From contig NC_086097.1 of assembly GCF_963921235.1 (NCBI RefSeq), positions 158,536,001 through 158,600,000 of the forward strand: DNA of 64,000 nt, written 5' to 3'. This DNA comes from Mobula hypostoma. Its lineage: Eukaryota. This document shows, in pieces, positions 4,876-59,108 of this stretch; the stretch's first letter is position 1; the number at the start of each line of letters is the position of its first letter. The notes under the pieces are model-generated. The model saw only the letters and a program-made list of their open reading frames with translations. It was not told the DNA's origin and did no database searches. Position numbers and translations under genes: made by a program.

Positions 4876-5029
4876 ATCGCAGGCCCTGATACAGAAGCCG
4901 ATGTAACTGAACTTCACACAGTATGATGCAGTTAAAAATAATAACACCTTATCATAAGGACTGTACAGTTTATACTGCAGTCTCATATGTCTGAAAGAAA
5001 TTACAGTCTCCAGGCAATAACAAAAAAAT

Positions 5030-5228
5030 GAGTAACACACACAAAATGTCAGATGATCTTAGCAGGCCAGGCAAAATCTTGGAGGGGACTAATGAAGCAT
5101 CCTGATGAATTTAGTGCTTAAAATATAAACTGTTTATTCCCCTCCATAGATGCTGCCTGACCTACAAAGTCTCATTTCTTGTGATTTACTCAAGAATTCC
5201 AGAAACTTCAGAATTTCTTATGTTATTA
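5030..5228. mobile_element. Old Penelope-derived fold-back unit (inverted terminal-repeat halves)
   Basis: acacacaaaatg...agcaggccaggca on one strand faces ctgtttattcccctccatagatgctgcctgacc on the other; decayed hammerhead core cctgatgaa. Confidence 0.6.
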
Positions 5229-6029
5229 AAAGAAATTAGTTTCAAATTCAGGTGGTCTTTATAAGGGATAGATCTGGTACATAGTTTATCATAAGTGCAA
5301 GACTGGGATTGCATGAATGGCTTTTTGAATTTAAATCAACAAACAAGATCTCGAAGAAGACTGTGTACACTTGCTACAGCAGTAGTGATAAAAAACAGTG
5401 CAGTTTACATCGTGACTATATTGAAAGAGTCATGGACTTGATTCCATAGGCATCTAGTGTAAGTTTAGAGATGTAATTCAATAAATCTTTTGGTTTATCA
5501 GTTTAAAATTGAGCAAATTAAATTGATCATATATGTCACTGGGTTTTGTTCAAAAAAGATTTTCTGATTCCTTTGGAAAAGTTTATTTTCCATCCATGCC
5601 TGGTTTAGCCTGGATATAACTGGAGTTCCATTCCTTGCTGTTGTCTATGATGGTAGAAAACAAATAGAAATACATTGTCTCACTATCAGCTTCTCAGGAA
5701 GGCTAAGGCAAGCATTATCAGAAGAAAAACTGTTGCAAATATTCAGAAAGTCAGCCAGCATCTGCAGGAAGAAAAACAGTTGAATATCCTCTGCTTAGTG
5801 CTGTCTGAGTTTGCTGTGTGTTTCCTGCATTTTCTATTTTTATTTCTGATCTCCAGTAGTTGTTCATGATTTTTTATGAGTTTTTGTGATTTTTTTGTGA
5901 TGTTGCCAAATCTGCATTGACATAAAGATTTTCTTAATAATATTCATGCGTTCATCAGATGAGACGTAACTGTCAAAGCTGGTGTTTATCATCTGCTCAT
6001 AATTGCCAATGAATTGGGGAAGAACTTCG

Positions 6030-17700: not shown

Positions 17701-17790
17701 GTTGTAGTAGGTGATTATAACTTTCCACTCAACACACATCAAAGTTGCTGGTGAACGCAGCAGGCCAGGCAGCATCTATAGGAAGAGGCG

Positions 17791-17828
17791 CAGTCGACGT
17801 TTCAGGCCGAGACCCTTCGTCAGGACTA
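17791..17828 (-). ncRNA. Minimal type-I hammerhead ribozyme in the PLE terminal repeat
   Basis: Minus strand reads tagtc-CTGACGA-agggtctcggcct-GAAA-c-GTC-gactg: stem I agtc/gact, intact core, palindromic ACGT in place of stem III. Confidence 0.75.
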
Positions 17829-18123
17829 ACTGAAGGAAGAGTGAGTAAGGGATTTGAAAGTTGGAGGGGGAGGGGGAGATGCAAAATGATAGGTAGGAGA
17901 AGACAGGAGGGGGAGGGATAGAGCCGAGAGCTGGACAGGTGATAGGCAAAAGGGGATACGAGAGGATCATGGGACAGGAGGTCCGGGAAGAAAGACGGGG
18001 GGGGGTGACCCAGAGGATGGGCAAGAGTTATATTCAGAGGGACAGAGGGAGAAAAAGGAGAGTGAGAGAAAGAATGTGTGCATAAAAATGAGTAACAGCT
18101 GGGGTACGAGGGGGAGGTGGGGC

Positions 18124-19487
18124 CTAGCGGAAGTTAGAGAAGTCAATGTTCATGCCATCAGGTTGGAGGCTACCCAGACGGAATATAAGGTGTTGTTCCT
18201 CCAACCTGAGTGTGGCTTCATCTTTACAGTAGAGGAGGCCGTGGATAGACATGTCAGAATGGGAATGGGATGTGGAATTGTGTGGCCACTGGGAGATCCT
18301 GCTTTCTCTGGCGGACAGAGCGTAGATGTTCAGCAAAGCGGTCTCCCAGTCTGCGTCAGGTCTCACCAATATATAAAAGGCCACATCGGGAGCACCGGAT
18401 GCAGTATATCACCCCAGTCGACTCACAGGTGAAGTGATGCCTCACCTGGAAGGACTGTTTGGGGCCCTGAATGGTGGTAAGGGAGGAAGTGTAAGGGCAT
18501 GTGTAGCACTTGTTCCGCTTACAAGGATAAGTGCCAGGAGGGAGATCAGTGGGGAGGGATGGGGGGGACGAATGGACAAGGGAATTGTGTAGGGAGCGAT
18601 CCCTGCGGAATGCAGAGAGAGGTGGGGAGGGAAAGATGTGCTTAGTGGTGGGATCCCGTTGGAGGTGGCGGAAGTTGCGGAGAATAATATGTTGGACCCG
18701 GAGGCTGGTGGGGTGGTAGGTGAGGACCAGGGGAACCCTATTCCTAGTGGGGTGGTGGGAGGATGGAGTGAGAGCAGATGTACGTGAAATGGGGGAGATG
18801 CGTTTAAGAGCAGAGTTGATAGTGGAGGAAGGGAAGCCCCTTTCTTTAAAAAATGAAGACATCTCCCTCGTCCTAGAATGAAAAGCCTCATCCTGAGAGC
18901 AGATGCGGCGGAGCCGGAGGAATTGCGAGAAGGGGATGGCGTTTTTGCAAGAGACAGGGTGAGAAGAGGAATAGTCCAGATAGCTGTGAGAGTCAGTAGG
19001 CTTATAGTAGACATCAGTGGATAAGCTGTCTCCAGAGACAGAGACAGAAAGATCTAGAAAGGGGAGGGAGGTGTCGGAAATGGACCAGGTAAACTTGAGG
19101 GCAGGGTGAAAGTTGGAGGCAAAGTTAATAAAGTCAACGAGTTCTGCATGCGTGCAGGAAGCAGCGCCAATGGAGTCGTCGATGTAGCGAAGGAAAAGTG
19201 GGGGACAGATACCAGAATAGGCACGGAACATAGATTGTTCCACAAACCCAACAAAAAGGCAGGCATAGCTAGGACCCATACGGGTGCCCATAGCTACACC
19301 TTTAGTTTGGAGGAAATGGGAGGAGCAAAAGGAGAAATTATTAAGAGTAAGGACTAATTCCGCTAGACGGAGCAGAGTGGTGGTAGAGGGGAACTGATTA
19401 GGTCTGGAATCCAAAAAGAAGCGTAGAGCTTTGAGACCTTCCTGATGGGGGATGGAAGTATATAAGGACTGGACATCCATGGTGAAA
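18124..19487 (-). pseudogene. PLE RT/GIY-YIG ORF with a premature stop and a frameshift
   Basis: ORF 18356-19504 stops at GET*, likely CGA>TGA, then continues RRLGDRFAEHLRSV; a small deletion near 18280 shifts the frame to NSTSHSHSDMSIHGL. The N-terminal MGVSVN is antisense CR1 flank. Confidence 0.88.
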
Positions 19488-19524
19488 TTGACTGAGACTC
19501 CCATGCTGTAAAATGACTAGATGC

Positions 19525-19660
19525 AATAGAGAAGATAAAATCTGCAGATGCTGGAAATCCAAGCAACACACACATAAAATGCTGCAGGAACTCAGCAGGC
19601 CAGGCAGCATCTATGGAAAAAAGCACAGTTGACGTTTCGGGCCAAAACTGTTCGGCAGCT
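19525..19660 (-). mobile_element. Penelope terminal-repeat fragment
   Basis: tctgcagatgctggaaatcc...aactcagcaggccaggcagcatctatgg...cagttgacgtttcgggcc; degenerate hammerhead. Confidence 0.75.
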
Positions 19661-19785
19661 GGAGTTTGTTAAATGTGTTCAAGAAAGTTTTCTTAATCAG
19701 TACATAGAAGTCCCACTGAGAGAGTCCACTTGATCTCCTATAAGGGAATGAGGCAGGGCAGATGATAAAAGTTTGTTTAGCGCGC

Positions 19786-20255
19786 TGTAAGGTTTCACTG
19801 CTAATGTAATGGCCTCTCTGTAATGTTTCACTGCTAACAATGGTTTCTCTGTAGCAGCAATGTTTGGGTTATGACTCGAAATAACGAGGTTTGGAATGCT
19901 GTTGTTATTTCTTGTGAGTCTGGAAGAGAGATTCTCACCGTCTTTGGTTGGCGAGAGGAGAAGGAAGACACGTGGGGAGAGAGCTGGTAGACCACTGGAC
20001 GGAGTGGACAGGGATCAAGGGTCCGAAGGTTGGCGACACTTGGAGAGGTCGATGGCTGATGAATATTTGTGAGCTCCAAGTGCACTTTTGACTTTTCTCT
20101 TTAAATGGACCCTTTTTCTTTTTCTTTTCTTTACTAACCCTGTATTCAGATTAAGATTTATAAAGTTCAATCAGTTAATTGCATATGGTGTACTGTTTGA
20201 TATTTTGCGGTGCGCATTTGTCACCAGGCCACACATCACGCAGCATCCACACAAA
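19786..20255. mobile_element. Probable LTR (retrotransposon) fragment
   Basis: Starts TGTAAGG where the CR1 abruptly ends; internal gtttcactgctaa repeats; no coding capacity; no TSD found. Confidence 0.4.
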
Positions 20256-20436
20256 CAAACACGTGCAACATGCTGGAGGAACTCAGCAGGTCGGGCAGCA
20301 TCCATGGAAATGAACAGTCAACATTTCGGGCCGAGACCCTTTGTCAGGACTGAAGAGGGAGGGGGCATGGGCCCTATAAAGGAGGTGGGGGGAGGGTGGG
20401 AAGGAGAAGGCTGGTAGGTGCCAGGGGAAAAACCAG

Positions 20437-21311
20437 TGTTACGTACCCCGTAACTGGGTTGCCAAACCAGCAGAAATGGATCACTCAGTTGGAGTCTGGA
20501 GTACTAGAACTAAGAAAGTTTTATTAAAGAAACGAGCAACACAGTAATCGAAAGGATAATAAATGCAACAGTTCAGCGATGATAAACGCACATGTGCACA
20601 GAATTAAGATAACAGCATCAATCAAGCTCTATCGTTGTCTAGGGGTAAATGACCAAATTTCAAAATGACTCAAAGTTCAGTCCAGTTGAGTTCGCAGTAA
20701 TCGTTGCCATGGCGATGGACAACGTGGGGGAAGAGAGAGATAGAATAGGAACAACTGATCATTCAGAACACTGCTTCACTCACAGACCAGCGAGATGGCT
20801 CACAGACCAGCGAGATGGCTCACAAACAGCTTTTGGGCGGGTCCTTGGTGATGTCACCTGAGGTCACCGACTGTGACCCCTCCTCCAGATGCGGTCGATC
20901 CTCTGCAGTGAACCCGGCACCCAGGCAAGGGCGGACACACACCGGGTTCCCGCTGATCGTACCTTTCCACCCTTGTCGTTGTCTGGTGCTTCTCACCCAC
21001 TCGTGAGAGGCGCACCGCTTCCAGGGTCTCGTTACCTCGGGTGGCGTGTGTGTCTGTCTTAGCGAACCTGTCCCTTTTTATCCCCCTGCTGGGGTATCGC
21101 CTGTCCATCACTTCAAACAGTTCAGGGTTCAAAGGGGGGAGCCGCTCCAGACAGCTCTCTCTCCCACATCCCTTCATTACACATCTCCAGACGCTGCTCC
21201 ATTGTTCCTTATCTCTCCTTGCCCTGAGGGCAGGTGGCAGACCAACTGCTGATGCCACTGATGCTAGCCCAGGCCAGCAAACATCTTAATTTTATGTGTA
21301 TTCTCGTAACA
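20437..21311 (-). mobile_element. Solo LTR (Gypsy-type, 875 bp)
   Basis: TGTTACG...CGTAACA inverted termini; 4-bp TSD CCAG at 20433-20436 and 21312-21315; minus-strand TATA-like gataaaaa near 21075 and AATAAA near 20520. Confidence 0.85.
20781..20820. repeat. 20-bp tandem duplication inside the solo LTR
   Basis: cacagaccagcgagatggct x2, exact. Confidence 0.9.
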
Positions 21312-21702
21312 CCAGTAAGGGGAAAGATCAAGCGGTGGGGGAGGAGATAGGCAGGAAAGGTGAAGAAGGAATAGGGGGAAGCACAATGGGTAGTAGATGG
21401 AGGTGGAACCATGAGGGAGGTGATAGGCGGCTGGAGGAGGGGGCAGAATGAAACTGGAATGGGGGAAGGGAGGGGCAGGGAATTACCGGAAGTTGGAGAA
21501 TTCAATGTTCATGCCAAGGGGCTGGAGACTACCCAGACGGTATATGAGGTGTTGCTCCTCCAACCTGAGTTTGGAGACCACAGCAACTGCTCCAACTACA
21601 GAGGCAACTACTCTTGCAGTCCCAAGAAAAGTCTTCTGCAAGATAATTCTAGAAAGGATGAAGGAGAAGGTAGCTGTAGATGAACAAGATGTTTTCTGCA
21701 AG

Positions 21703-32859: not shown

Positions 32860-34815
32860 GGGGGCGACACGTGATGACAAGGGATTGAGACGTGTAAATC
32901 CAGCTCTCCCGTAAAAAATCAGCAAAATACCGTTTAATCAAAGTAAAGTTAATAAATACTTTCTGAAAACTACTTATAAACTTTGTAAGACTGCTCTACG
33001 ATATGCCTCGTAAACCGCAACAGAAGAAGTCTGTTGTTGTGAAGTCGCCGCGAGATGGGAAGAAAAAAGGGCCTACTGCAGTGATGGAGCCTCAGATTCA
33101 GGTTGGATCTCCTTCGGAGGAGACGCATTTTATCTCTGGCGTAGAAGAACAGGGAGCAATGGTGGCGGTAGCGGTCTCTCGGAAGAAGATGCCGGAAATG
33201 CGCATGCACAAATCGACACAACTTAAACTACAAGAACCGACGGCCATTGCAACTGAAAGTGACTCAGAGTATGAATTGGACACCACAGAGAATACAGATG
33301 AAGAAGAGGAGGAAGAACTGGAAGAGACTGGAAGTAAAGGAGACGACGGAGACATAAGAGAGGCTTTATTACAATTAACGACTGAACTAAGAAAATTAAG
33401 AACAGAGCTTAGAGACGTGAAGATGTGCTATGATAAAGCTATGAAAAGACAGGACAAAATGGATAAGAAACTTCAGAAGATGGAAAGAACAATGGAGAAT
33501 ATTAATAACAGAGTGGAAAAAACAGAAAATGGTGTGCTTGTCTGGGACACGGAAAGAAATCAACTCTTGGAGAAAGTGGACGTGTTGGAAAATTTTAGTA
33601 GACGTAATAATATTAAAATTGTTGGTCTTAAAGAAGGTATAGAGGGAGATAATCCAATAGAATTTTTTCAAAGATGGATCCTGAAAACCTTGCAAATGAA
33701 AGAGGAAGACCGATCAATTGAAATTGAGCGGGTACATAGAGCTCTAAGACCAAAACGACAAGATGACCAATATCGACGATCAATTTTAATAAAATTCTTA
33801 AGATTTCAAGACAAAGAAAGGATTCTACAGGTGGCTGCCCAAGCTGCCAAGAAGAGAAAAGGGCCACTGAAGGGAAGAAGAAGGGAAGAAAATTTTTTTC
33901 TACCCTGACATAAGTTATGAACTTTTGAAGAGAAGGAAGAAATTTAATCCAGTGAAAAAAGCCCTATAGGATCACAGTTATCAACTTATATTGCGTTATC
34001 CTGCAACCTTGAAGATTTTTTTGGCTGGTGGAGAAAAAAGATTTTTTGACGATTACCGGAAAGCGGAGGAGTTTGTGCGAGATTCTTTGAATATTCACCA
34101 GATACAAGAACAAACTCAGGGGAGCGAGATGGATTGAAGATGAAGTTTGGATCAAGGAATAGGCCTGTTGGATTTTTAGGCGATTGAATATATAAATATA
34201 TTATTAATTATATGAGGGAGGGGAAGAAAGGTTAAAATTTGAGGAATACTAGCTGGGAATAATGGCATTAATTTCTTTTTTATGTATATACAATTTTTTG
34301 TTACGGGGGAGCTGGAAGAAATACTGACCAATCGCTACGTTATTCATGTGTGCAAGAGTGGCAATAGACACGACCCACAAAGTGGAGGGGGGTAGTGTTA
34401 TGTATCTTTTCATTCACAACATTAGTGGGGGGGGGTATTTTGTTTTTTCTTTTTTTTGTATCTTATCTATCTTTTTTTTCTTTTTGGATGATTGGGAGGG
34501 AAACCCATAGCAACATGGTAAAGTTCAAAGAGATTTCCCAGGGAACTATGAGAGTTGAGAAGCTAAGTAATGTTTACTTTATAAGATAAACACCTTGGTT
34601 CCTTGGGGAAAGTAACAAATATATATTAAATATATTTTTAATCCCATGGAGTATGTGGAATCCTTCCAATATTCAGGCGGTTCTCCTTTTTTTTTTCTCT
34701 TTTTTCTTTTCTCTTTAGGTAGGAGTACATATCGGGGGGGAGGGTTAAGGGGAGGGGGGAGGGTAGATATTATTTTCTGTTGTATTCACTTTGAAAACTC
34801 ATAAAAATTATATAA
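32860..34815 (+). mobile_element. ORF1-only L1-clade element (HAL1-like / internally deleted L1), both ends intact
   Basis: 15-bp TSD aaaagttatggagag at 32845-32859 and 34816-34830; G-rich 5' start, ORF1, T-rich spacer, G-rich 3' UTR and A-rich tail; no endonuclease or RT motifs seen. Confidence 0.85.
33003..34137 (+). pseudogene. L1 ORF1p (coiled coil + RRM + CTD) with a frameshift and a stop
   Basis: LENFSRRNNIKIVGLKEG, IEIERVHR, ILIKFLRFQDKERIL; a frameshift near 33870-33900 continues YPDISYELLKRRKKF..L*..LRYPATLKI to TGA at 34137. Confidence 0.85.
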
Positions 34816-37324: not shown

Positions 37325-40300
37325 ACTGTAAGACCATAAGGCTTAGGTGCAGAATTAGGCCATTCAGCCCATTGAGTCTGCTCCACCATTCTATCATGAC
37401 TGATCCCAGATCCCACTTAACCCCATACACCTGCTTTTTCACCATATCCTTTGATGCCCTGACCGATCAGGAAATGAACAACTTCTGCCTTAAATATACG
37501 CACAGTTTTGTCCTCCACCGCAGTCTGTGGCAGAACATTCTACTCTGTGGCTAAAATAAATCATCCTTACCTCTGTTCTAAAGGGTCGCCCCACAATTTT
37601 GACGCTGTGCCCCTTGTTCTGCATATAGCCAACAAAGGAAACTTCTCCTCCACATCCCTGCTATCTTGTCCTTTCAGCATTTGGTAGGTTTTAATGAGAT
37701 CCCCTGGTGTTCTTCTAAATTCCAGTGAGTACACATCTAAAGCTGCCAAACATTCCTCATGTTAACCCCTTCATTCCTGGAATCATCCTTATGAGCCTCG
37801 TCTGGTCTCTGTCCAATGACAACACATCCTTTCTGAGATATGGGTCCCAAAACTGTTGACAATGCTCCCAAGTATAGTCTGACTAGTGTTTTATAAATGT
37901 TCAGCATTATCTCCTTGCTTTTATATTCTATTCCCTTTGAAATGCCAGCACTGCATTTTTCTGTTTACCACAGACTCAACCTGTAAATTAACCTTCTGGG
38001 AGTCTTGCACAAAGACTCTTAAGACTCCTCTCCACCTCTGATGTTTGAACTTTCTCCCCATTTAGATAATAGTCTGTACTTTGTTCCTTTTATCAAAGTG
38101 CATTACCATACTTTTCCCGAAACTGTCTACCTGCCAATTTTTTGTCCATTCTTCCAACTTGTCCAAGTCTTGCTGCAATCACATTGCTTCCTCAGCACTA
38201 CCTGTCCTTCTAGCTATCTTTGTATCATCCACAAACTTTGCTACAAAGCCATCAATTCCATTATCTAAACAATTGACAAACAATGTGAAAAGTGGCAGTC
38301 CCAATACTAACCTCTGAGGAACACCACTAGTCACTGACAGCCAACCAGAAAAGGCCCCTTTTATTTCCATTCACTGCCTCTTGCCTGTCAGCCATTCTAT
38401 TATCCATGCCTGTATTATTTTGTAATGCCGTATGATATAATCTTGTTATGCAGCCTCATGTGTGACACCTTATCAAATACCTTCTGAAAATCCAAGTAAA
38501 TGACATCCATTTCCTCTCCGTTCTCTACCCCTGCCTGCTACTTTCTTGAAGAACAGTTTTGTTAGGCAAGATTTCCCTTTAGAGAAACCATGCTGACTTA
38601 GGCTTATTTTATCATTAGTCTCCAATTACCTCAAAACCTCATCCTTAATAATACTCCTACACCTTACAACCATTGAGGTTAGACTAACAGTCCTATAATC
38701 TCCTTTCTTTCGCCTTCCTCCTGTCTTTAACAGTGGTGTGATGTTTGCAGTCTTCCTGTCCTCCGGTACCATGCCAGAATCAAGTGATGCTTCAAAGATC
38801 ATGATCAATGCATCAGTTATCTTTTCTGCAACCTCTTTCAGGATTCTGGGATGTAGTCCATCTGGTCAAGGTGACTTATCCGCCTTAAGATCTTTGAGTT
38901 TGCCTAGCACTTTTTCCTTTGTAATGGCAATGGCACTCACTCCAGCTCCCTGGCACTCACGGACCTCTGGCATACAGCTAGTGTCTTCCACAGTGAAGAC
39001 AGATGCAAAGTACCAATAAGTTCATGTACCATTTCTTTGTCCCCTATTACTACCTCACCAGCATTATTTTCCAGTGGTTGAATATCAACTCTCACCTCCC
39101 TTTTACTCCTTATATAAGTGCAAAAACCTTTTGGTGTCCTGCTTTATGTTATTAGCTAGTCTGCCCTCATATTTCATTTTTTCCCTTCTTATGGCTTTTT
39201 TTAGTTGCCTTTTATTGCTTTTCAACAGCTTCTCATTCATCTAACTTTCCATTCACTTTTGCTATCTTATACTGTATGCCCCTTTCTTGGCTTGTATACA
39301 GTCCTTAACTTCCTTTGTCTGCCACAGTTGCCTACCACTGCCATTTGAGAACTTCATCCTCTGTGGGACATATCTATCCTGTGGCTTGTGAACTATTTGC
39401 AGAAACTTCAGCCATCATCCCCAACAGTCCTCCTCTAATCCACTTCAGAAAGCTCCTCTCTCATGCCTCTGTAATTCCCTTTATTTCATTGTGATATTGA
39501 TACATGTGAGTTATGTTTCTCCCTCTCAAATTGCAGTATGAATTCAATCATATTATGATTACTGTCCCCTAAGTGTTCCTTTACATTAAGCTCCCTAATA
39601 ACATCTGCGTTATTACACACACCCAATTTAAGACAGCCTTTCTCTGAGTAGGCTCAAGCACAAGCCACTCTAAAAATCCATCTTCTAGGCATTCAACAAA
39701 TTCCTTCTCTTGTGATCTGACACCAATCTGATTTTCCCAATCTCCTTACATATTGCCTCAGATGGATGAAGAAGTTTGGCATGAGTTGCCAGGTCCTAAG
39801 GATGTTCTTCTATAGAGGCACAATTGAGAGCATCCTGACCTGCTGCATTTCCTCCTGGTATGGGAACTGTACTTCCCTCAATCGCAGGACACTGCAAAGA
39901 GTGGTGCGGACAGCTCAACGCATCTGTAGATGTGAACTTCTCACTATTCAGGACAGAGACCAGTGCATAAAAAGGGCCCGAAGGATCATTGGAGACCTGA
40001 GTCACCCCAACCACAGACTGTTCCCGTTACTATCATCTGGGAAATGATACTGCAACATTAAAGCCTGGACCAACAGGCTCCGGGACAGCTTCTTCCACCA
40101 GGCCATCAGACTGATTAATTCATACTGATACAATTCTATTTCTATGCTATATTGACTGTCCTATTGTACATACTATTTATATCAAATTACTATAAATTAC
40201 ACATTCACATTTAGATGGAGACAATAACGTAAAGGTTTTTACTCCTCATATATATGAAGGATGTAAGAAATATATGTTAATTCAATTCAACTCAATATTG

Positions 40301-46524: not shown

Positions 46525-48228
46525 AATCAAGTTACAGTTTCAAAAGTAGCACTAACCTGCATTATGTTGATGAAAATTCTGGTAATGATGAGAGTGACAG
46601 AGTGACACAGAACTGAGTAGCTTGAGATTTACAATGTTAAAACTAACAATAGACAAGCAATATGGTTTACAGCAATTAATTAAAATGGAATTGGATGCTG
46701 GCACGGCTGTTTCAGTCATTACACAAAATGAGTTTAAATGTTGTTTTAACAAAACTGAACTGAAGTCTGCAGATACCCAACTAAGAACTTATACTGGAGA
46801 ACATATAACTCCTGTGGGAATGACATTCATAACAATGCAATACAACAACCAACAAGCCTCTTTGGGCTTGTATGTAATAAAAAAAAGACTGAAAGCGAAT
46901 TAAGGAAGGTGCTGGATGATGCCACAACTGTCTCCATGCCGAACACCATGGACTGTTGCCCAACAGAGGGCAAACAGCTGTTGGTGCCAACCTCTGTGCC
47001 TGTGGTTGGAAAACATATTGGATAAAGAAGTGACATGGCTGCTCAGAGGTAGTGTGAAAGCAGTGGTCCAACTACCACAGTTTTTGAAAGTTACATATCT
47101 GAGAAAGTCTCTGATATGTTAATTGGGCAATTACTTATGAAATGGGACTTGGTTTCAAGCTGGAAGAGAGTTCAAGGAGTTTCAGGAAACTTGCACGCAT
47201 TTGGCTTTTGTTAGTATGAAAACACAGAATCTGCTCTGCATGCATTAACGTTATTGCAAGAACTTCAAATGAGAGACAGAAAGCTGGTTGTAAAAGTAGA
47301 TGTAAAGATCGAAGCCCAGCTGGATGAATGGAGGGCCAAAAATAAAGGAGTCAATGGAGATACAAAAATAGGATTTGTCAGATAATGTTGTGGATGAAGA
47401 AACCCAGAGGAAGATCAGATTGTAAGGGGAGCAATAGAGGAATTAAGAGAATACTCTAGTGAGCTAAATAGACCTTTCCAAGATTAAGATGCACATCCTG
47501 GAAAGAGGAAAAGGGAAAAGAAAGAGGAGGATGACATACATGAAGTGTTGTAAGAACTGCTGAAGGGTCCCAGCCTGTAATGTTGACTGTTTACTCTTTT
47601 CCACAGATGCTACCTGGCCTACTCAGTTCCTTCTGCATTTTGTGTGTGTTACTTGGATTTCCAGCATCTGCAGATTTTCTCTTGTTTGAGGATGATGACA
47701 TTAGTGCAATGGAAATGGAAGAGGACAAGTGAGACATACTGTCACTTCTCAAGAAATTAGCAAATGAAGAGATACTCACAAGATTCTAGAAGGAGAAAAA
47801 AGATGGAGAGAAAGAATGTGCGCAAGGAAGAGAAAAGCATGAAAGAGATCAGGAACAGAGAGGAAAAGAGGACAGAGAGAGAAAGATGCCAGGACCAGAA
47901 GATAAGGAAGGATGAAAGTAGATCCAGAGCGAAGGAGAAGAAAGGTCTCCAGTGCTGTCAGAACCACTTCCTATAGTCTCAAAGTTTCTGGAGGAGGCCA
48001 CAAAACCTGAGATTGCTTCACAGCCACAAGTCTCACCTGCCAAGCAGAGTGATCCCCCTTGTCAGGAAAGGTGCTATCCCGCAAGAGTAAGAAAGCTTCC
48101 ACAGCGATTAAATCTTAGGCCTGAATGGGACAATTTTAAAACTACTATGCTGTGAAAGTCTGTATGGTGTGTGTATAGTTCAGATACGTTCTGTATTGAG
48201 TTGGAGTTTATTGCTAAGCAGGGAGGAG
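46525..48228 (+). mobile_element. Gypsy LTR-retrotransposon internal remnants (protease; pol C-terminus; polypurine tract)
   Basis: IKMELDAGTAVSVI..LRTYTGEHITPVG (aspartic-protease-like); ERCYPARVRKLPQRL; polypurine tract aagcagggaggag directly before TG; heavily deleted and interrupted. Confidence 0.7.
47555..47690 (+). mobile_element. Penelope terminal-repeat fragment
   Basis: ctgctgaagggtcccagcctgtaatgttgactg...gatttccagcatctgcagattttctc. Confidence 0.7.
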
Positions 48229-53405: not shown

Positions 53406-54504
53406 ATCAAGCTCTGCTTTAAGTATACTCAATGACTAGGCCTCCACAACCATCTGTGGCATAGATTCACTACCCTCTGACTAAAGAAATTACTCCACAC
53501 TTCTGTTCTAAATCAACATCCCTCTATTCTGAAGCTGTGCGCTCTTGTCCTGGACAATCCCACTATAGGAAACATCCTCTCCACACCCACTTGATCTGTG
53601 CCTTTCAGTATTTGGGTTCCAATGAGATCCCCCTCATTCTTCTAAACTCCAGTGAGTACAGGCCCAGAGTCATCAAATGCTCCTCATATGTTCACCCTTT
53701 CATTCCCGGAATCATCCTCATGAATGCCAGCACTACTTTTCACAGATAAGGAGCCCAAAGCTGATCACAATACTCCAAGTCTGGTCTGTCCATGCCTTAT
53801 AAAGCCTTGCTCTTATATTCTCGATCTCTTGAAATGAATGATAACATTGCATGTAGCTTTCTACCGCTGAGTCAACCTGCAAGAAAACCTTAAGGGAATC
53901 CTGCATGAGGGCTCCCAAAATCCTCTGCACCTCTGGATTTTGAATTTTCTCCCCTTATAGAAAATAGCCTATGTCTTTATTCCTTCTACCAAGGTGTATG
54001 ACCACATAATTCCCTACACTATATTCTGTCTGCCATTCAATTCCATCATCCAAATTATTGGTGTATATCGTGCAAAGAAGCTGTCCCAACACTGACCTTG
54101 GAAGAACACCACACGTCACTGGCAGCCAACTAGAAAAGGCCCCCTTTATTTCTATTCTTTGTCTCCTATGCTGGTATCTTTCCTGTCACACTATGGGCTC
54201 TTATCTTGTTAAACAGCTTCATGTGCAACACCTTGTCAAAGGCTTTCTGAAAATACAAGTAAACAACTTCACCTGACTCTCCTTTGTCAATCCTGCTTGT
54301 TATTTCCTCAAAGAATTCCAACAGATTTGTCAGACAAGATATCCCCTTAAGGAAACCATGCTGACTTTAAAGATCATTAATAATACCTCCACAAGCTCTT
54401 CAGCTACTTCTTTCAGAACCCTGGGGCATAGACCATCTGGTCCAGGTGACTTATCTACCTTCAGACGTTTCAGCTTCCCAAGCACCTTCTCCATAGCAAT
54501 AGCA

Positions 54505-54780
54505 ATAACACACAAAATGATGGAGGAACTCAGCTGGTCAGGTAGCGTCTATGGGAATGAATAAACAGTTGACAGTAGTTCTAAATAGTCTTCCTTCCCC
54601 TCCCCCCCAACTTTTTATTCTGGTGTCTTCCCTCCTTCTTTTCCAGTCCTGAAGAGGTGGCTCGGCTCCTAATGTTGACTGTTTATTCTTCTCCGTAGAT
54701 ATTGCCTGACCTGCTGAATTCCTCCATCATTTTGTGTGTATTGCTCTGGATTTCCAACATCTTCAGAACCTCTTGTGTTT
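54505..54780. mobile_element. Penelope fold-back mini-element with ~9-bp TSD
   Basis: Short minus arm plus a plus arm with degenerate hammerhead; flanks gcaatagca (54496-54504) and gtaatagca (54781-54789). Confidence 0.7.
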
Positions 54781-55542
54781 GTAATAGCAGCTACACCCAT
54801 CTCTGACATTTTTGAAATTCTGCCTTACTGCTAGTGTCTTCTCCAGTGAAGACCGATGCAAAATACTTAAGCTCATCCACTATTTCTTTGTCTCTCATTA
54901 CTACCTCTCCAGCATCATTTCCCGGCGGTGTGATATACACTCTCACCTTCGTTTTATTCTTTATATATCTGAAAAGGCTTTTGGTATCCTCTTTTATATT
55001 ATTGTCTAGCTCACCTTCATATTTCTTTTTTCTCTACTTGTGGCTTTTTTAATTACCTTCAGTTAGTTTTTAAAAGCTTCCCAACCCGCTGACTTATGAC
55101 TAATTTTTGCTCTATTATTTGCCCTCTCTTATTATTGAGGACAGGAGATCAATTAGCATTAGTGGGGGGAGAAAGAGTCCTTGTTTCAGGTCATCAGAAA
55201 TAAGTAAGCATGAAAGCATGTTTGTTTTAAATTGCTGTGTAGTGTAAGCCTGGGGAGACCAGACTAGTGCTGATTGAAATGTCAACATAGTAATTATCTG
55301 CAAAAATTCAGCAGAGACGAAAGAAAAAATAAAAGAGATAGTCGGAGTTATGTCAATGGAAAGAGAAAAATGAGGGGTTGTTACCTGCAATAGTTGAATT
55401 CAATTTTAAGTCGCAAAAGCTGCAAAGTGTCCAGATGAGAGATTATTTGTTTTCCTTGAGCATTCATTGGGCATCGTTGGAGCTATGGTGGAGGGTGAAG
55501 GTGGAGAAATGAAAGTGGGAGTGGGGCAGAGAACTAAAATGA

Positions 55543-56222
55543 AATTTGCTGGTGAACGCAGCAGGCCAGGCAGCATCTCTAGGAAGAGATACAGTCGGCG
55601 TTTCGGGCCGAGACCCTTCGTTAGGACTAACTGTAGGAAGAGCTAGTAAGAGATTTGAAAATGGGAGGGGGAGGGGGAGATCCAAAATGATAGGAGAAGA
55701 CAGGAGGGGGAGGGATGGAGCCAAGAGCTGGACAGGTGATTGGCAAAAGGAATATGAGAGGATCATGGGACAGGAGGCCCGGGGAGAAGGAACAGGGGGA
55801 GGGGGGGGAAACGGAGGATGGGTCAGAGGGACAGAGGGAGAAAAAAGAGAGAGAGAAAAAGAATGTGTGTATATAAATAAATAACGGATGGGGTACAAGG
55901 GGGAGGTGGGGCATTAGCGGAAGTTAGAGAAGTCAATGTGCATGCCATCTGGTTGGAGGCTACCCAGACGGAATATAAGGTGTTCCTCCAACCTGAGTGT
56001 GTCTATCCACGGCCTCCTCTACTGTAAAGATGGATCTCCCCCTCCCCCTCCCACTTTCAAATCTCTTACTAGCTCTTCCTTCAGTTAGTCCTGACGAAGG
56101 GTCTCGGCCCGAAACGTCGACTGTACCTCTTCCTAGAGATGCTGCCTGGCCTGCTGCATTCACCAGCAACTTTGATGTGTGTTGCTTCAATTTCCAGCAT
56201 TTGCAGAATTCCTCGTGTTCAC
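55543..56222. mobile_element. Young Penelope inverted (fold-back) insertion with 17-bp TSD
   Basis: TSD gcagagaactaaaatga at 55526-55542 and 56223-56239; minus arm to ~56000, short inverted linker to ~56032, then plus arm. Confidence 0.9.
56086..56123 (+). ncRNA. Minimal type-I hammerhead ribozyme, intact core
   Basis: tagtc-CTGACGA-a-gggtctcggccc-GAAA-c-GTC-gactg; predicted cleavage after C56118. Confidence 0.8.
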
Positions 56223-58298
56223 GCAGAGAACTAAAATGATAGGATCTTCTGGGTAGATTTGTGCAAATCAGAAGCCCAATTTGCATTTTGTTTCTCTAGT
56301 GTAAAGGAGACCACATTGTGAATACAAGCCTGGTACATTAAAAAGGAAAAACTGCATGTGATTTGCTGATTATTTGGAAGGAATAATTGGGTCACAAGAT
56401 AATAGAAAGGAAAAGGATAGAAAGGCAGGTGTTACCACTCCCCTGGTTATATAGAAGACTGTTTAGAAAAAAGTGGTAGATGGAGATGAACCAGGAAATC
56501 ACCAAGGAAGTGATGTTTTTAGAATCATGAGATGAGAGGGGAGGGTATGTTTGCTGGTGGAGATTGTTGGCATCTCCAAGATGTTTGAATTTGTTCAACA
56601 TTATAGACGAGAAAATAATCCAGATAACACATCTGTTTGTGTCAGTGAATGGAAGAGTGCAGCAGTATGGTGAATAAATTACTCAGCTGATATCCACAAA
56701 CCTGGATTATCATCCCAGAGATGATCTAACCTGTTTCTTGTCTCACATGATTATTCATCACAGGCTGCCAGATACTTAAAACAGATTTGTTAAGCATCTT
56801 TCATGCATTGAATGATAAATAATTATGAGGTTTTTAGTTTGAACTGGCTGTAATGAAACATATCATCAATGTTATTTCCAAGCTAATACCAAAATAAGAG
56901 ATAAGACAGATCGAAACAAATCACCAGCAAAAACACTTCCATTTTCTAGAATCTGTGAATGACTCTGAAATTGGTTAGAAATATAAAGGGAGACTTCATT
57001 ATTCTGTGTGGCCAGTGGCTCATGTGTCACTGTATTTGCTTTGTCTTATCACAATGCAGAGTGGCCAAGCACTGCACAGCATTCCATTTTTCAGTTGTGA
57101 AATCATTATATTCTATCCCACTGTTGTTTTTAGTTCAATGTTCTGAAAGGTAAATTCAGAACATATTTAGTTTCTTGCAATATCACATTTCAACCATACA
57201 TAGAAGAGTAGTAAAAAAAAATACCCCTTTCATCAAACAAGATATGGAAAATTGGCACACTCAGCTATTCAGAGAACACAGAGGTTAGCTTTGGCCCATT
57301 GCATCATTGTTTCTTCTTGGAAAGCATCAACTAAATCAATTCAAGATACATCAGATAAGGCTAAAATGTGCCATTTCTCAAATACTTTTCATATCCCTCA
57401 AATCAAACTATATCAATCCCCAAATCTTTCTCTTGCCTGAGAAAATGATTTAAAATCGTTATCTCGCAAACGTCCCTCTGAAATACAAAGGAGGGAGACT
57501 GGATATGTATCGCTCAATTTATGAGTCTGTATGCTATTACTGGCAGGGCTTTCGGCAGGGATTCAGATCATGGAGACGCTTGTGGAGTTTAAGCGCAGAT
57601 TTCAAAAGTGAGCAGAGCCTGTTGGAATTTTCTGTGGAGATTTTGATTGTTTGTGTTGTTAGACACTTGGCAAGGGCCAATAAAAAGAAGTTTGGTTTAA
57701 GTAGAGCAGCCATTATGGGAGAGGCCATTGTTGGAGTGGGATCCCAGGGTTAGAGTCTGACACAGAGGCTTTGGCGAGGAGAGGTGGAGGTTTCTGTCAA
57801 GTTTCTCTTTTTTTGTCTATTAGTGCCTAGCTAGAGTAGTGAGAATGGATTCCTCATACAGTGTGTGTGCTCCTCATACAAGATATGGAAAATCTCGGAA
57901 CTCTTCAGTCTCTCAGATTGCTACATCTGTGAGAAGTGAAACTGGGTGCAACTCCTTTCAGACTGTGTTTGGGAAATGGAGCTGGATGACCTTAAGATCA
58001 TTCGGGAAATTAAGGCGATGATAGGTACAGAGTTCCAGGGAGGTTGTCACACCTAAGTTGCAGAGGCTGGTTGCGAGGTGAGTATCGGGAGAGGGAACAG
58101 GAGTAGGCAGCCAGTGCAGAGTACCCCTTTAGTTGTTCCCCTTAATAATAAGTACTGCTTTGGATACTGTTTTGGTGGTGGTGGGGTGGTGTAAATGACC
58201 TACCAGGGGAAAATCTGCAGCGGCTACGTTTCTGACACTGAGTTTGGCTCTGTACCTTAGAAGGAAAGCAATGGGTGTTGGGGGGGAGTGGCCGTGAT

Positions 58299-59108
58299 TA
58301 ATTTATTATTAATTAATGGCTCCGTCTATCTAAGTAGACAATGGATGCACCTGGTTTTCCGGGGCGCAGACCTGGGTGATGAATATGGAGATCCTGGGCT
58401 GCCCAGATATCAAGATCCCCCTCTCAGCCTCGCGGATGTGGTCCAAAGGAATGTGAAGGTCTCTGGGATTTCCCATATCTTGCATGAGGAACACACACAC
58501 ACTGACTACTACATAATGTACTGGTTGGGCACAGGAGAACATTCAACCAGAGACTCATTCCACCGAGATGCAACACAGAGTGTCATAGGAAGTCATTCCT
58601 GCCTGTGACCATCAAACGTTACAACTCTTCCCTTGGAGGGTCAGACACCCTGAGCCAATAGGCTGGTCCTGGACTTATTTCCTGGCATAATTTGCATATT
58701 ACTATTTAGCTATTTATGGCTTTATTACTATTTAATTATTTATGGTGCAACTGTAACGAAAACCATTTCCCCCCGGGATCAATAAAGTATGACTATGACT
58801 ATGACTATGACAATGACTATAACTATGAAGCAGTACATTTGGCATCTGCTTGGCTGCAGGAGCTGCTGGGAGGTGATGTGATACGTCATCCAACTGCCAC
58901 AGGGGCTCCACTCCGAATTTGTGTAGGGTTTACTCCTTAGTCTTCTCTTCTCCCGAAGATACCCACAAGGCAGTGGGATCCGTAACCCTGGACAGGGGCC
59001 CATACCGGATACTGTCAGCCGGAGCCAGCTGAGCCCGGGACTTGTGTAAGGCAGGGTCATCACGCCCTGTAGTAGTGACATATGGAGCCACTACCCGCTA
59101 CCCATAAT
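58299..59108 (-). mobile_element. Non-autonomous RTE derivative (5' UTR fused to 3' tail)
   Basis: Tail tggctccgtctatctaagtagacaatggatgcac resembles the RTE end at 29061; flanked by gtgat (58294-58298 and 59109-59113); CR1 ORF1 is continuous across it. Confidence 0.6.
58459..58825 (+). mobile_element. Rex1-like 3' fragment with (GACTAT)n tail
   Basis: HNVLVGHRRTFNQRLIPPRCNTECHRKSFLPVTIKRYNS; aataaag then (tatgac)n; flanks tgaag at 58454-58458 and 58826-58830. Confidence 0.75.

Follow-up and report, generated by a model that had tools for sequence, protein, structure and literature searches.

How two inverted pieces of one retroelement came to lie within a single pair of target-site duplications (TSDs) is the question raised by a fold-back Penelope-like element (PLE) at positions 55526 to 56239 of the window, the 64-kb stretch of Mobula hypostoma DNA analyzed here. 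In the available text of PMC3846280, a typical Penelope structure comprises pseudo-LTRs (pLTRs) with an adjacent inverted pLTR, an 8- to 10-bp TSD, and, optionally, a tail on one of the arms. The same structure is repeated in the accessible part of PMC8969392, and a general scheme is given in that of PMC8557442, where the origin of tandem and inverted PLE structures is called undefined. The novelty of layout implied by the original prediction is not supported, since the structure is typical in this literature and recurs within the window. Such a layout is ordinary for PLEs, and by itself the locus is of small importance; what makes it useful is the seam, whose geometry favors two target-primed cDNAs on one RNA, at a site whose empty state is proven.

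Architecture of the fold-back unit

Arm positions were numbered on a reference PLE copy outside the insertion, and the following features were assigned.

17730..19516, minus strand: reference copy for mapping, outside the insertion; a 5'-truncated, broken PLE with a reverse transcriptase (RT), a CX4CX2C linker and a GIY-YIG-like motif
55526..55542, plus strand: left TSD copy; exact repeat, present as a single 17-mer at the empty site (run X18, record 11)
55543..56001, minus strand: arm B; 5'-truncated PLE, reference 1307 to ~1779, with no tail, 86% identical to 17738-18217
55593..55628, minus strand: left-arm minimal hammerhead motif, with changes in the CUGA box (55622) and the cleavage triplet (55598)
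55914..56001, minus strand: end and stop of the RT/GIY-YIG open reading frame (ORF) in arm B, with a 3-bp deletion; from the alignment and the reference frame
56000..56032, plus strand: piece A; 33 bp of the ORF, reference 1270-1302, 33/33 identical, encoding SIHGLLYCKD
56031..56222, plus strand: arm C; pLTR end from reference 1638, tailed, 93.5% identical to 17730-17883
56087..56122, plus strand: right-arm minimal hammerhead motif, core intact by sequence
56185..56222, plus strand: one-sided tail, extending ~38 nt past the short end of the reference copy (equivalent to 56184)
56223..56239, plus strand: right TSD copy; exact repeat, present as a single 17-mer at the empty site

The reference copy matched the Pfam RT family RVT_1 with an E value of 5e-4, under the curated cut-off. 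Its homolog P0004, which is 95% identical, matched GIY-YIG with an E value of 5e-4, also under the cut-off, and the more distant homolog P0032 passed the cut-offs for both RT and GIY-YIG. The best protein matches to the reference copy came from Mobula and Hypanus (73 to 95% in most of the top matches), followed by sharks and marine invertebrates. The reference ORF contains the linker motif CKRNKCYTC. According to the available text of PMC8557442, a CX2-5CxxC motif within the RT-endonuclease linker marks Neptune or Nematis PLEs; we call the family Neptune-like by this motif, which Nematis shares. The features of endonuclease-bearing (EN+) PLEs are all present, namely, the RT/GIY-YIG coding sequence of the reference copy and its homologs, a pLTR hammerhead, an inverted 5'-truncated copy, a one-sided tail, and a TSD. 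A literature search that covered few subscription journals found no publication on PLEs in sharks or rays. A search of metagenome contigs with a 20-nt pLTR pattern returned 29 loci, none of which (0/29) matched beyond 20 to 29 nt, and all were taken as chance.

A repeat search of the window showed that the TSD copies are identical at 17 of 17 positions. The 17-mer occurs nowhere else in the 64 kb, and the chance expectation for a 17-bp pair near both unit ends is ~3e-7. The copies bracket 680 bp, all of which maps to one Neptune-like element, in the order minus arm B, the 33-bp plus-strand piece A, and plus arm C with its tail. Each TSD copy adjoins an element 3' end, the left one directly and the right one via 3 nt at the tail end; the 3' end of arm B points left and that of arm C points right. 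The exact enclosing TSD, the outward 3' ends, and a minus-strand arm running from the terminal repeat to the end of the ORF had all been named in the original prediction, and each was confirmed, the last by alignment of 55543-56001 to the reference copy. We conclude that the fold-back unit is a real, single, decayed PLE insertion with a known architecture.

Arm B spans the final ORF codons, the 3' region, and the hammerhead, and the ORF end is all that the unit keeps of the PLE coding sequence. The left arm ends 8 to 12 nt before the short end of the reference copy; the tail is present on the right arm only and matches other pLTRs in the window. Excluding the TSD, the arms form a 142-bp inverted repeat with 7 differences (4.9%). 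The left arm alone carries 6 of the 7 (p = 0.125), and the arms have 9 departures from the reference copy in common. We rejected a MITE or fold-back DNA transposon, as 50 nt at the right end have no mirror image and both arms are 3' ends of a retroelement.

The 3' end of piece A (1302) sits just 4 nt upstream of the 5' start of arm B (1307) in the element, and both inner junctions, one at each end of piece A, show a 2-nt microhomology. The strand reverses only once, at the B/A junction (56000/56001). The A/C junction (56031/56032) is a same-strand jump of ~335 nt, and the stretch jumped (1303-1637) equals, apart from 4 nt, the part of the element found in arm B only. These observations refine the two internal strand or template switches of the original prediction: there are two junctions, but only one of them reverses strand. 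Likewise, the ~30-bp inverted ORF piece was found as 33 bp with the expected peptide, but its inversion is relative to the minus arm only, and it runs collinear to the plus arm. The 2-nt landing sites possible upstream of arm C number 87, and only 1 of them lies within 5 nt of the arm B start (~1%).

Empty and filled sites in relatives

Of 23 public sequencing runs listed, 4 were compared with the site. The element family is so abundant in the runs (2,247 joints, 448,496 pieces) that the records listed cover a minority of the joints and pieces, and summed depth gives no copy number. A 1,687-nt contig from run X18 (organism F) carries the empty site, with a single 17-mer and no element; its letters 1342 to 1681 correspond to window positions 55180-55525 and letters 557 to 1341 to 56223-57000, and the flanks are contiguous. 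The original prediction had proposed a search for the empty orthologous site, and organism F provides it. The unit therefore represents one insertion, because the contig of a relative has the empty site with a single 17-mer.

In run X1 (organism A), contigs free of differences extend into the left arm by 26 nt and into the tail by 30 nt, which falls just below our 31-letter rule for a bridging record; organism A may be the window's own sample and hence not independent. Contigs from run X5 (organism B) reach 26 nt into the unit on the left and 32 nt on the right. Among the records listed for run X19, none was at the site. The site is filled in organisms A and B and empty in F.

The flanks are separated by 23 of 1,278 letters (1.8%) for the filled organisms A and B and by 76 of 1,124 letters (6.8%) for the empty organism F. 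The arm divergence of 4.9% lies inside this bracket; the probability of at least 7 arm differences is 0.015 at 1.8%, and that of at most 7 is 0.24 at 6.8%. Judged from these sequence distances, the arm divergence fits arms that would have been identical on arrival, and hence copied from a common template. The claim of a single insertion event is thus supported by the empty site with one 17-mer, the 9 shared differences, and a divergence inside the bracket.

These records also bear on the possibility that the interior is misassembled or that two insertions occurred at the same site. The inner junctions are known from the window sequence alone, since among the records listed none spans the unit or either inner junction, and PLEs in tandem or inverted arrangement are a known source of assembly problems. 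However, the outer junctions in organisms A and B match the window, the empty site is clean, and the unit is just 680 bp with arms 5% apart. Independent insertion of the arms was rejected, as separate insertions would not share one TSD. Taken together, an artefact or separate events seem hardly credible here. An opposite-strand joint at 55678/56039 in the run data most likely reflects paralogs divided between the two arms and was left out of the evidence.

Origin of the three-piece seam

We propose that the unit is one Neptune-like PLE insertion for which a single RNA underwent double target-primed reverse transcription, with a cDNA jumping to the part left uncopied, and this is the account toward which we lean. 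The TSD and the empty site show that the two target strands were cut at points 17 nt from each other. Each target 3' end would then have primed a cDNA close to the RNA 3' end, the right one at the tail end and the left one ~46 to 50 nt further in, and these two offset priming points would leave the element 3' end of each arm facing outward and give a tail to one side only. The left cDNA would have copied ~460 nt and stopped at 1307. The right cDNA probably copied ~190 nt, was displaced or released, and reannealed via 2 nt at 1302, where it would have added 33 nt; 1302, its putative landing point, would have been the first RNA left uncopied. The cDNA ends may have been joined via a 2-nt microhomology, with the second strands completed by host repair. 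What remains today is a dead copy, a neutrally decaying fossil.

This account comes from one case, and it carries costs of its own. The same 142 nt must be copied twice, which would need strand displacement, because we know of no RNase H in a PLE RT. Furthermore, the seam of a second fold-back in the window (54496-54789) is plain, with no third piece abutting the other arm.

Priming from both target strands has been observed in vitro for PAc, a Poseidon protein of Anolis carolinensis. The protein cuts each strand of the target, top and bottom, extends both, and starts reverse transcription at two sites on the RNA that delimit the tail (PMC11167929, available text), as we propose for the ray unit. 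In the same text, the hammerhead is dispensable in vitro and PAc is predicted to form a dimer, and head-to-head insertions are not modeled in the text available. PAc differs from the ray family in belonging to the Penelope/Poseidon clade, whereas the ray family has the Neptune/Nematis linker motif, and unlike in PAc, the short arm of the ray unit begins 8 to 12 nt inside the usual short end. The original prediction had offered priming from both nicked strands as one of two explanations; the geometry and the published PAc data favor it, but it is not demonstrated at this locus.

The other explanation was a self-priming hairpin. By this route, fold-back of a cDNA or antisense transcript would first yield a double-stranded DNA in head-to-head form, which the endonuclease would then integrate with a TSD. 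The available text of PMC3846280 puts forward such self-priming as a hypothesis for head-to-head PLEs, on the basis of palindromes at the inverted junction, and it would likewise yield one TSD around two arms. However, an inverted-repeat search found no palindrome of at least 12 nt across 56000 or 56031, and no inverted repeat spans the seam beyond a few bases. The arm end points also differ on either side, and there is no mirroring of the 315 bp that separate the arms. In addition, PAc in vitro primes from target DNA on both strands (PMC11167929, available text). As the palindrome that self-priming requires is absent from the seam, we consider it improbable for this unit.

The main rival is a later micro-inversion. 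In this scenario, an ordinary two-arm fold-back was inserted with a minus arm that ran on through piece A, and the 33 bp adjoining the seam were subsequently flipped, with the loss of 4 nt, by a short template switch during replication. This sequence of events explains the abutment of piece A and arm B as well as double priming does, with no special RNA geometry. The single seam in the reconstruction would itself have a 2-nt microhomology, 3-nt inverted words flank the flipped piece, and the piece lies at the foot of a 142-bp stem, where replication could stall; the available text of PMC12350158 allows that noncanonical L1 insertions are postintegration changes. On the other hand, a rare second event must fall within 2 nt of the original seam, and extra templated pieces at seams are expected during integration, as in the L1 data of bioRxiv 2024.08.27.596794 (available text). 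We judge the micro-inversion unlikely, but a serious contender nonetheless.

The two arms might instead have been primed on two RNAs that shared a stop or break hotspot near 1305, which set both the end of arm B and the landing site of the jump. Four copies in the window are truncated within the final 150 nt of the ORF, and 2 of them end near 1306; the copy at 21484-21574 is 5'-truncated near reference 1306, matching the cut-off point of arm B. A 12-bp inverted repeat (an RNA stem) lies in the ORF end just past these truncations (55948-55996 in arm B; z = -2.3 for the region). Position ~1306 may thus be a hotspot of RT stops or RNA breaks, with the RNA stem near the ORF end possibly defining the site. 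Such a hotspot would weaken the 1% figure for the landing site and allow two RNAs, and the lopsided arm differences (6 versus 1) would also fit two slightly different templates. A pair of RNAs could be accommodated by the dimer predicted for PAc (PMC11167929, available text). Against this, 9 differences from the reference copy are common to both arms and the hotspot is based on two copies, and we regard two RNAs as more improbable still than self-priming. Double priming on one RNA remains our preferred reading.

Among known PLEs, Pen2a_Av and Pen2_Av of Adineta vaga share with the ray unit the flanking inverted repeats, the outward 3' ends, the single TSD, a one-sided tail of 30 to 40 bp, and a pLTR hammerhead, and one rotifer derivative likewise has an internal microhomology-mediated deletion (PMC3846280, available text). 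The ray unit differs in its 17-bp TSD (8 to 10 bp in the rotifer PLEs), its seam without a palindrome, the third piece that abuts the 5' end of the other arm, and its cartilaginous fish host.

The geometry of the seam also resembles that of L1 twin priming, a name reportedly introduced by Ostertag and Kazazian in 2001. In the available text of bioRxiv 2024.08.27.596794, cDNA transfer to upstream RNA still uncopied is described in 20 cases, compared with 1,703 insertions carrying a 5' inversion, and inversion points mostly have small deletions (66%). The class called twin priming and 5' or 3' switching shares with the ray unit pieces adjacent in the template, a small deletion, and joining by microhomology; in both, the two target nicks would prime cDNA and the extra piece would come from uncopied RNA. 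For a test of the L1 type, the values measured here are a 4-nt gap and 2-nt overlaps between oppositely oriented pieces. In contrast to L1, the ray unit has no poly(A) and a GIY-YIG rather than an APE endonuclease, and both primers are at or near the element 3' end, so that the terminal 142 nt are copied twice. The ray unit works like L1 twin priming with switching but is a PLE and no member of that class. A search that covered few subscription journals found no paper in which the head-to-head seams of PLEs are linked to twin priming on a single RNA.

By extension, and only tentatively, we suggest that head-to-head PLEs originate when one RNA is reverse-transcribed from two target primers, rather than by self-priming, with abutting three-piece seams as the fossil signature. 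Should the three-piece pattern recur, it would give a countable genomic test of how PLE inverted structures form, and a PLE-dense ray genome would allow their origin to be tested by seam counts.

Hammerheads, transcript hairpin, and other loci in the window

The hammerhead calls made here rest on what we take to be the core consensus. As originally predicted, one hammerhead is intact and the other doubly mutated, at the two left-arm positions listed above, and the damage looks like neutral decay. The core motifs are also present in the reference copy, apart from changes in the stems. An Rfam search of the window returned no match at the gathering score, minimal hammerheads included, and the minimum-energy folds of the three hammerhead regions, that of the right-arm motif among them, did not form the ribozyme. 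Minimal PLE hammerheads need tandem dimers (PMC4209133, available text), and the two motifs here face opposite ways, so they could not form that dimer; instead, they would pair together in a hairpin. A functional role for the intact hammerhead was considered and rejected for lack of support.

The 714 nt that include the TSDs are predicted to fold into a long hairpin (z = -26), in agreement with the ~150-bp transcript hairpin originally proposed, the arms being 142 bp. According to the fold model, a strong transcript hairpin would be expected of any 142-bp inverted repeat. The role as a dsRNA, an siRNA/piRNA source or an ADAR substrate offered in the original prediction is unsupported. When 89 of the 91 ORFs of at least 75 amino acids at 26 to 64 kb were compared with Pfam, none (0/89) matched and no host coding exon was recognized; the region may still be an intron.

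PLE-like matches were found at ~10 loci of the window, and three of these are outward-facing pairs (55526-56239, 54496-54789, and ~5029-5232), all with a tail on one arm only. Fold-backs at 3 of ~10 PLE loci in 64 kb of sequence suggest that ray genomes may hold many latent RNA hairpins. The second fold-back was assigned as follows.

54496..54789, no strand assigned: second fold-back PLE, belonging to another subfamily and inserted independently 0.74 kb upstream; tailed on the right arm only, with a 9-bp TSD (1 mismatch)

The 9-mer of this insertion has a single copy in a paralogous repeat at 38865-39025, and the repeat that hosts the insertion is presumably CR1-like. The end of the short arm overlaps the TSD by ~4 nt, as if it had been primed by microhomology. 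The pair at 5029-5232 is a third, far older outward pLTR pair, with the tail on the right arm and no credible TSD.

When the PLE loci were searched for TSDs, clear ones were found at 55526-56239, 54496-54789, and 47524-47701, while the search at 5030-5232, 17730, 19.6k, 20-21k, 25k, 27k, 51k, and 63k gave just 6- to 9-nt matches of chance quality. The locus at 47524-47701 is a solo tailed pLTR, and its flanking 14-bp repeat (1 mismatch) looks like a TSD. At 17730-19670, a tailed pLTR of a different subfamily (19520-19670) directly precedes the RT/GIY-YIG copy on the same strand, with no TSD found. The matches at 20254-21574 appear to be a single PLE copy split by an unrelated insert of ~0.9 kb (~20440-21330).

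Two further features of the window were observed. An inverted repeat at 57861-58500, with 47-bp arms (83%) and 546 nt between them, is unrelated to PLEs. At 32967-33908, a 313-amino-acid open frame contains a coiled-coil region and has a weak match to tropomyosin; we take it to resemble a LINE ORF1.
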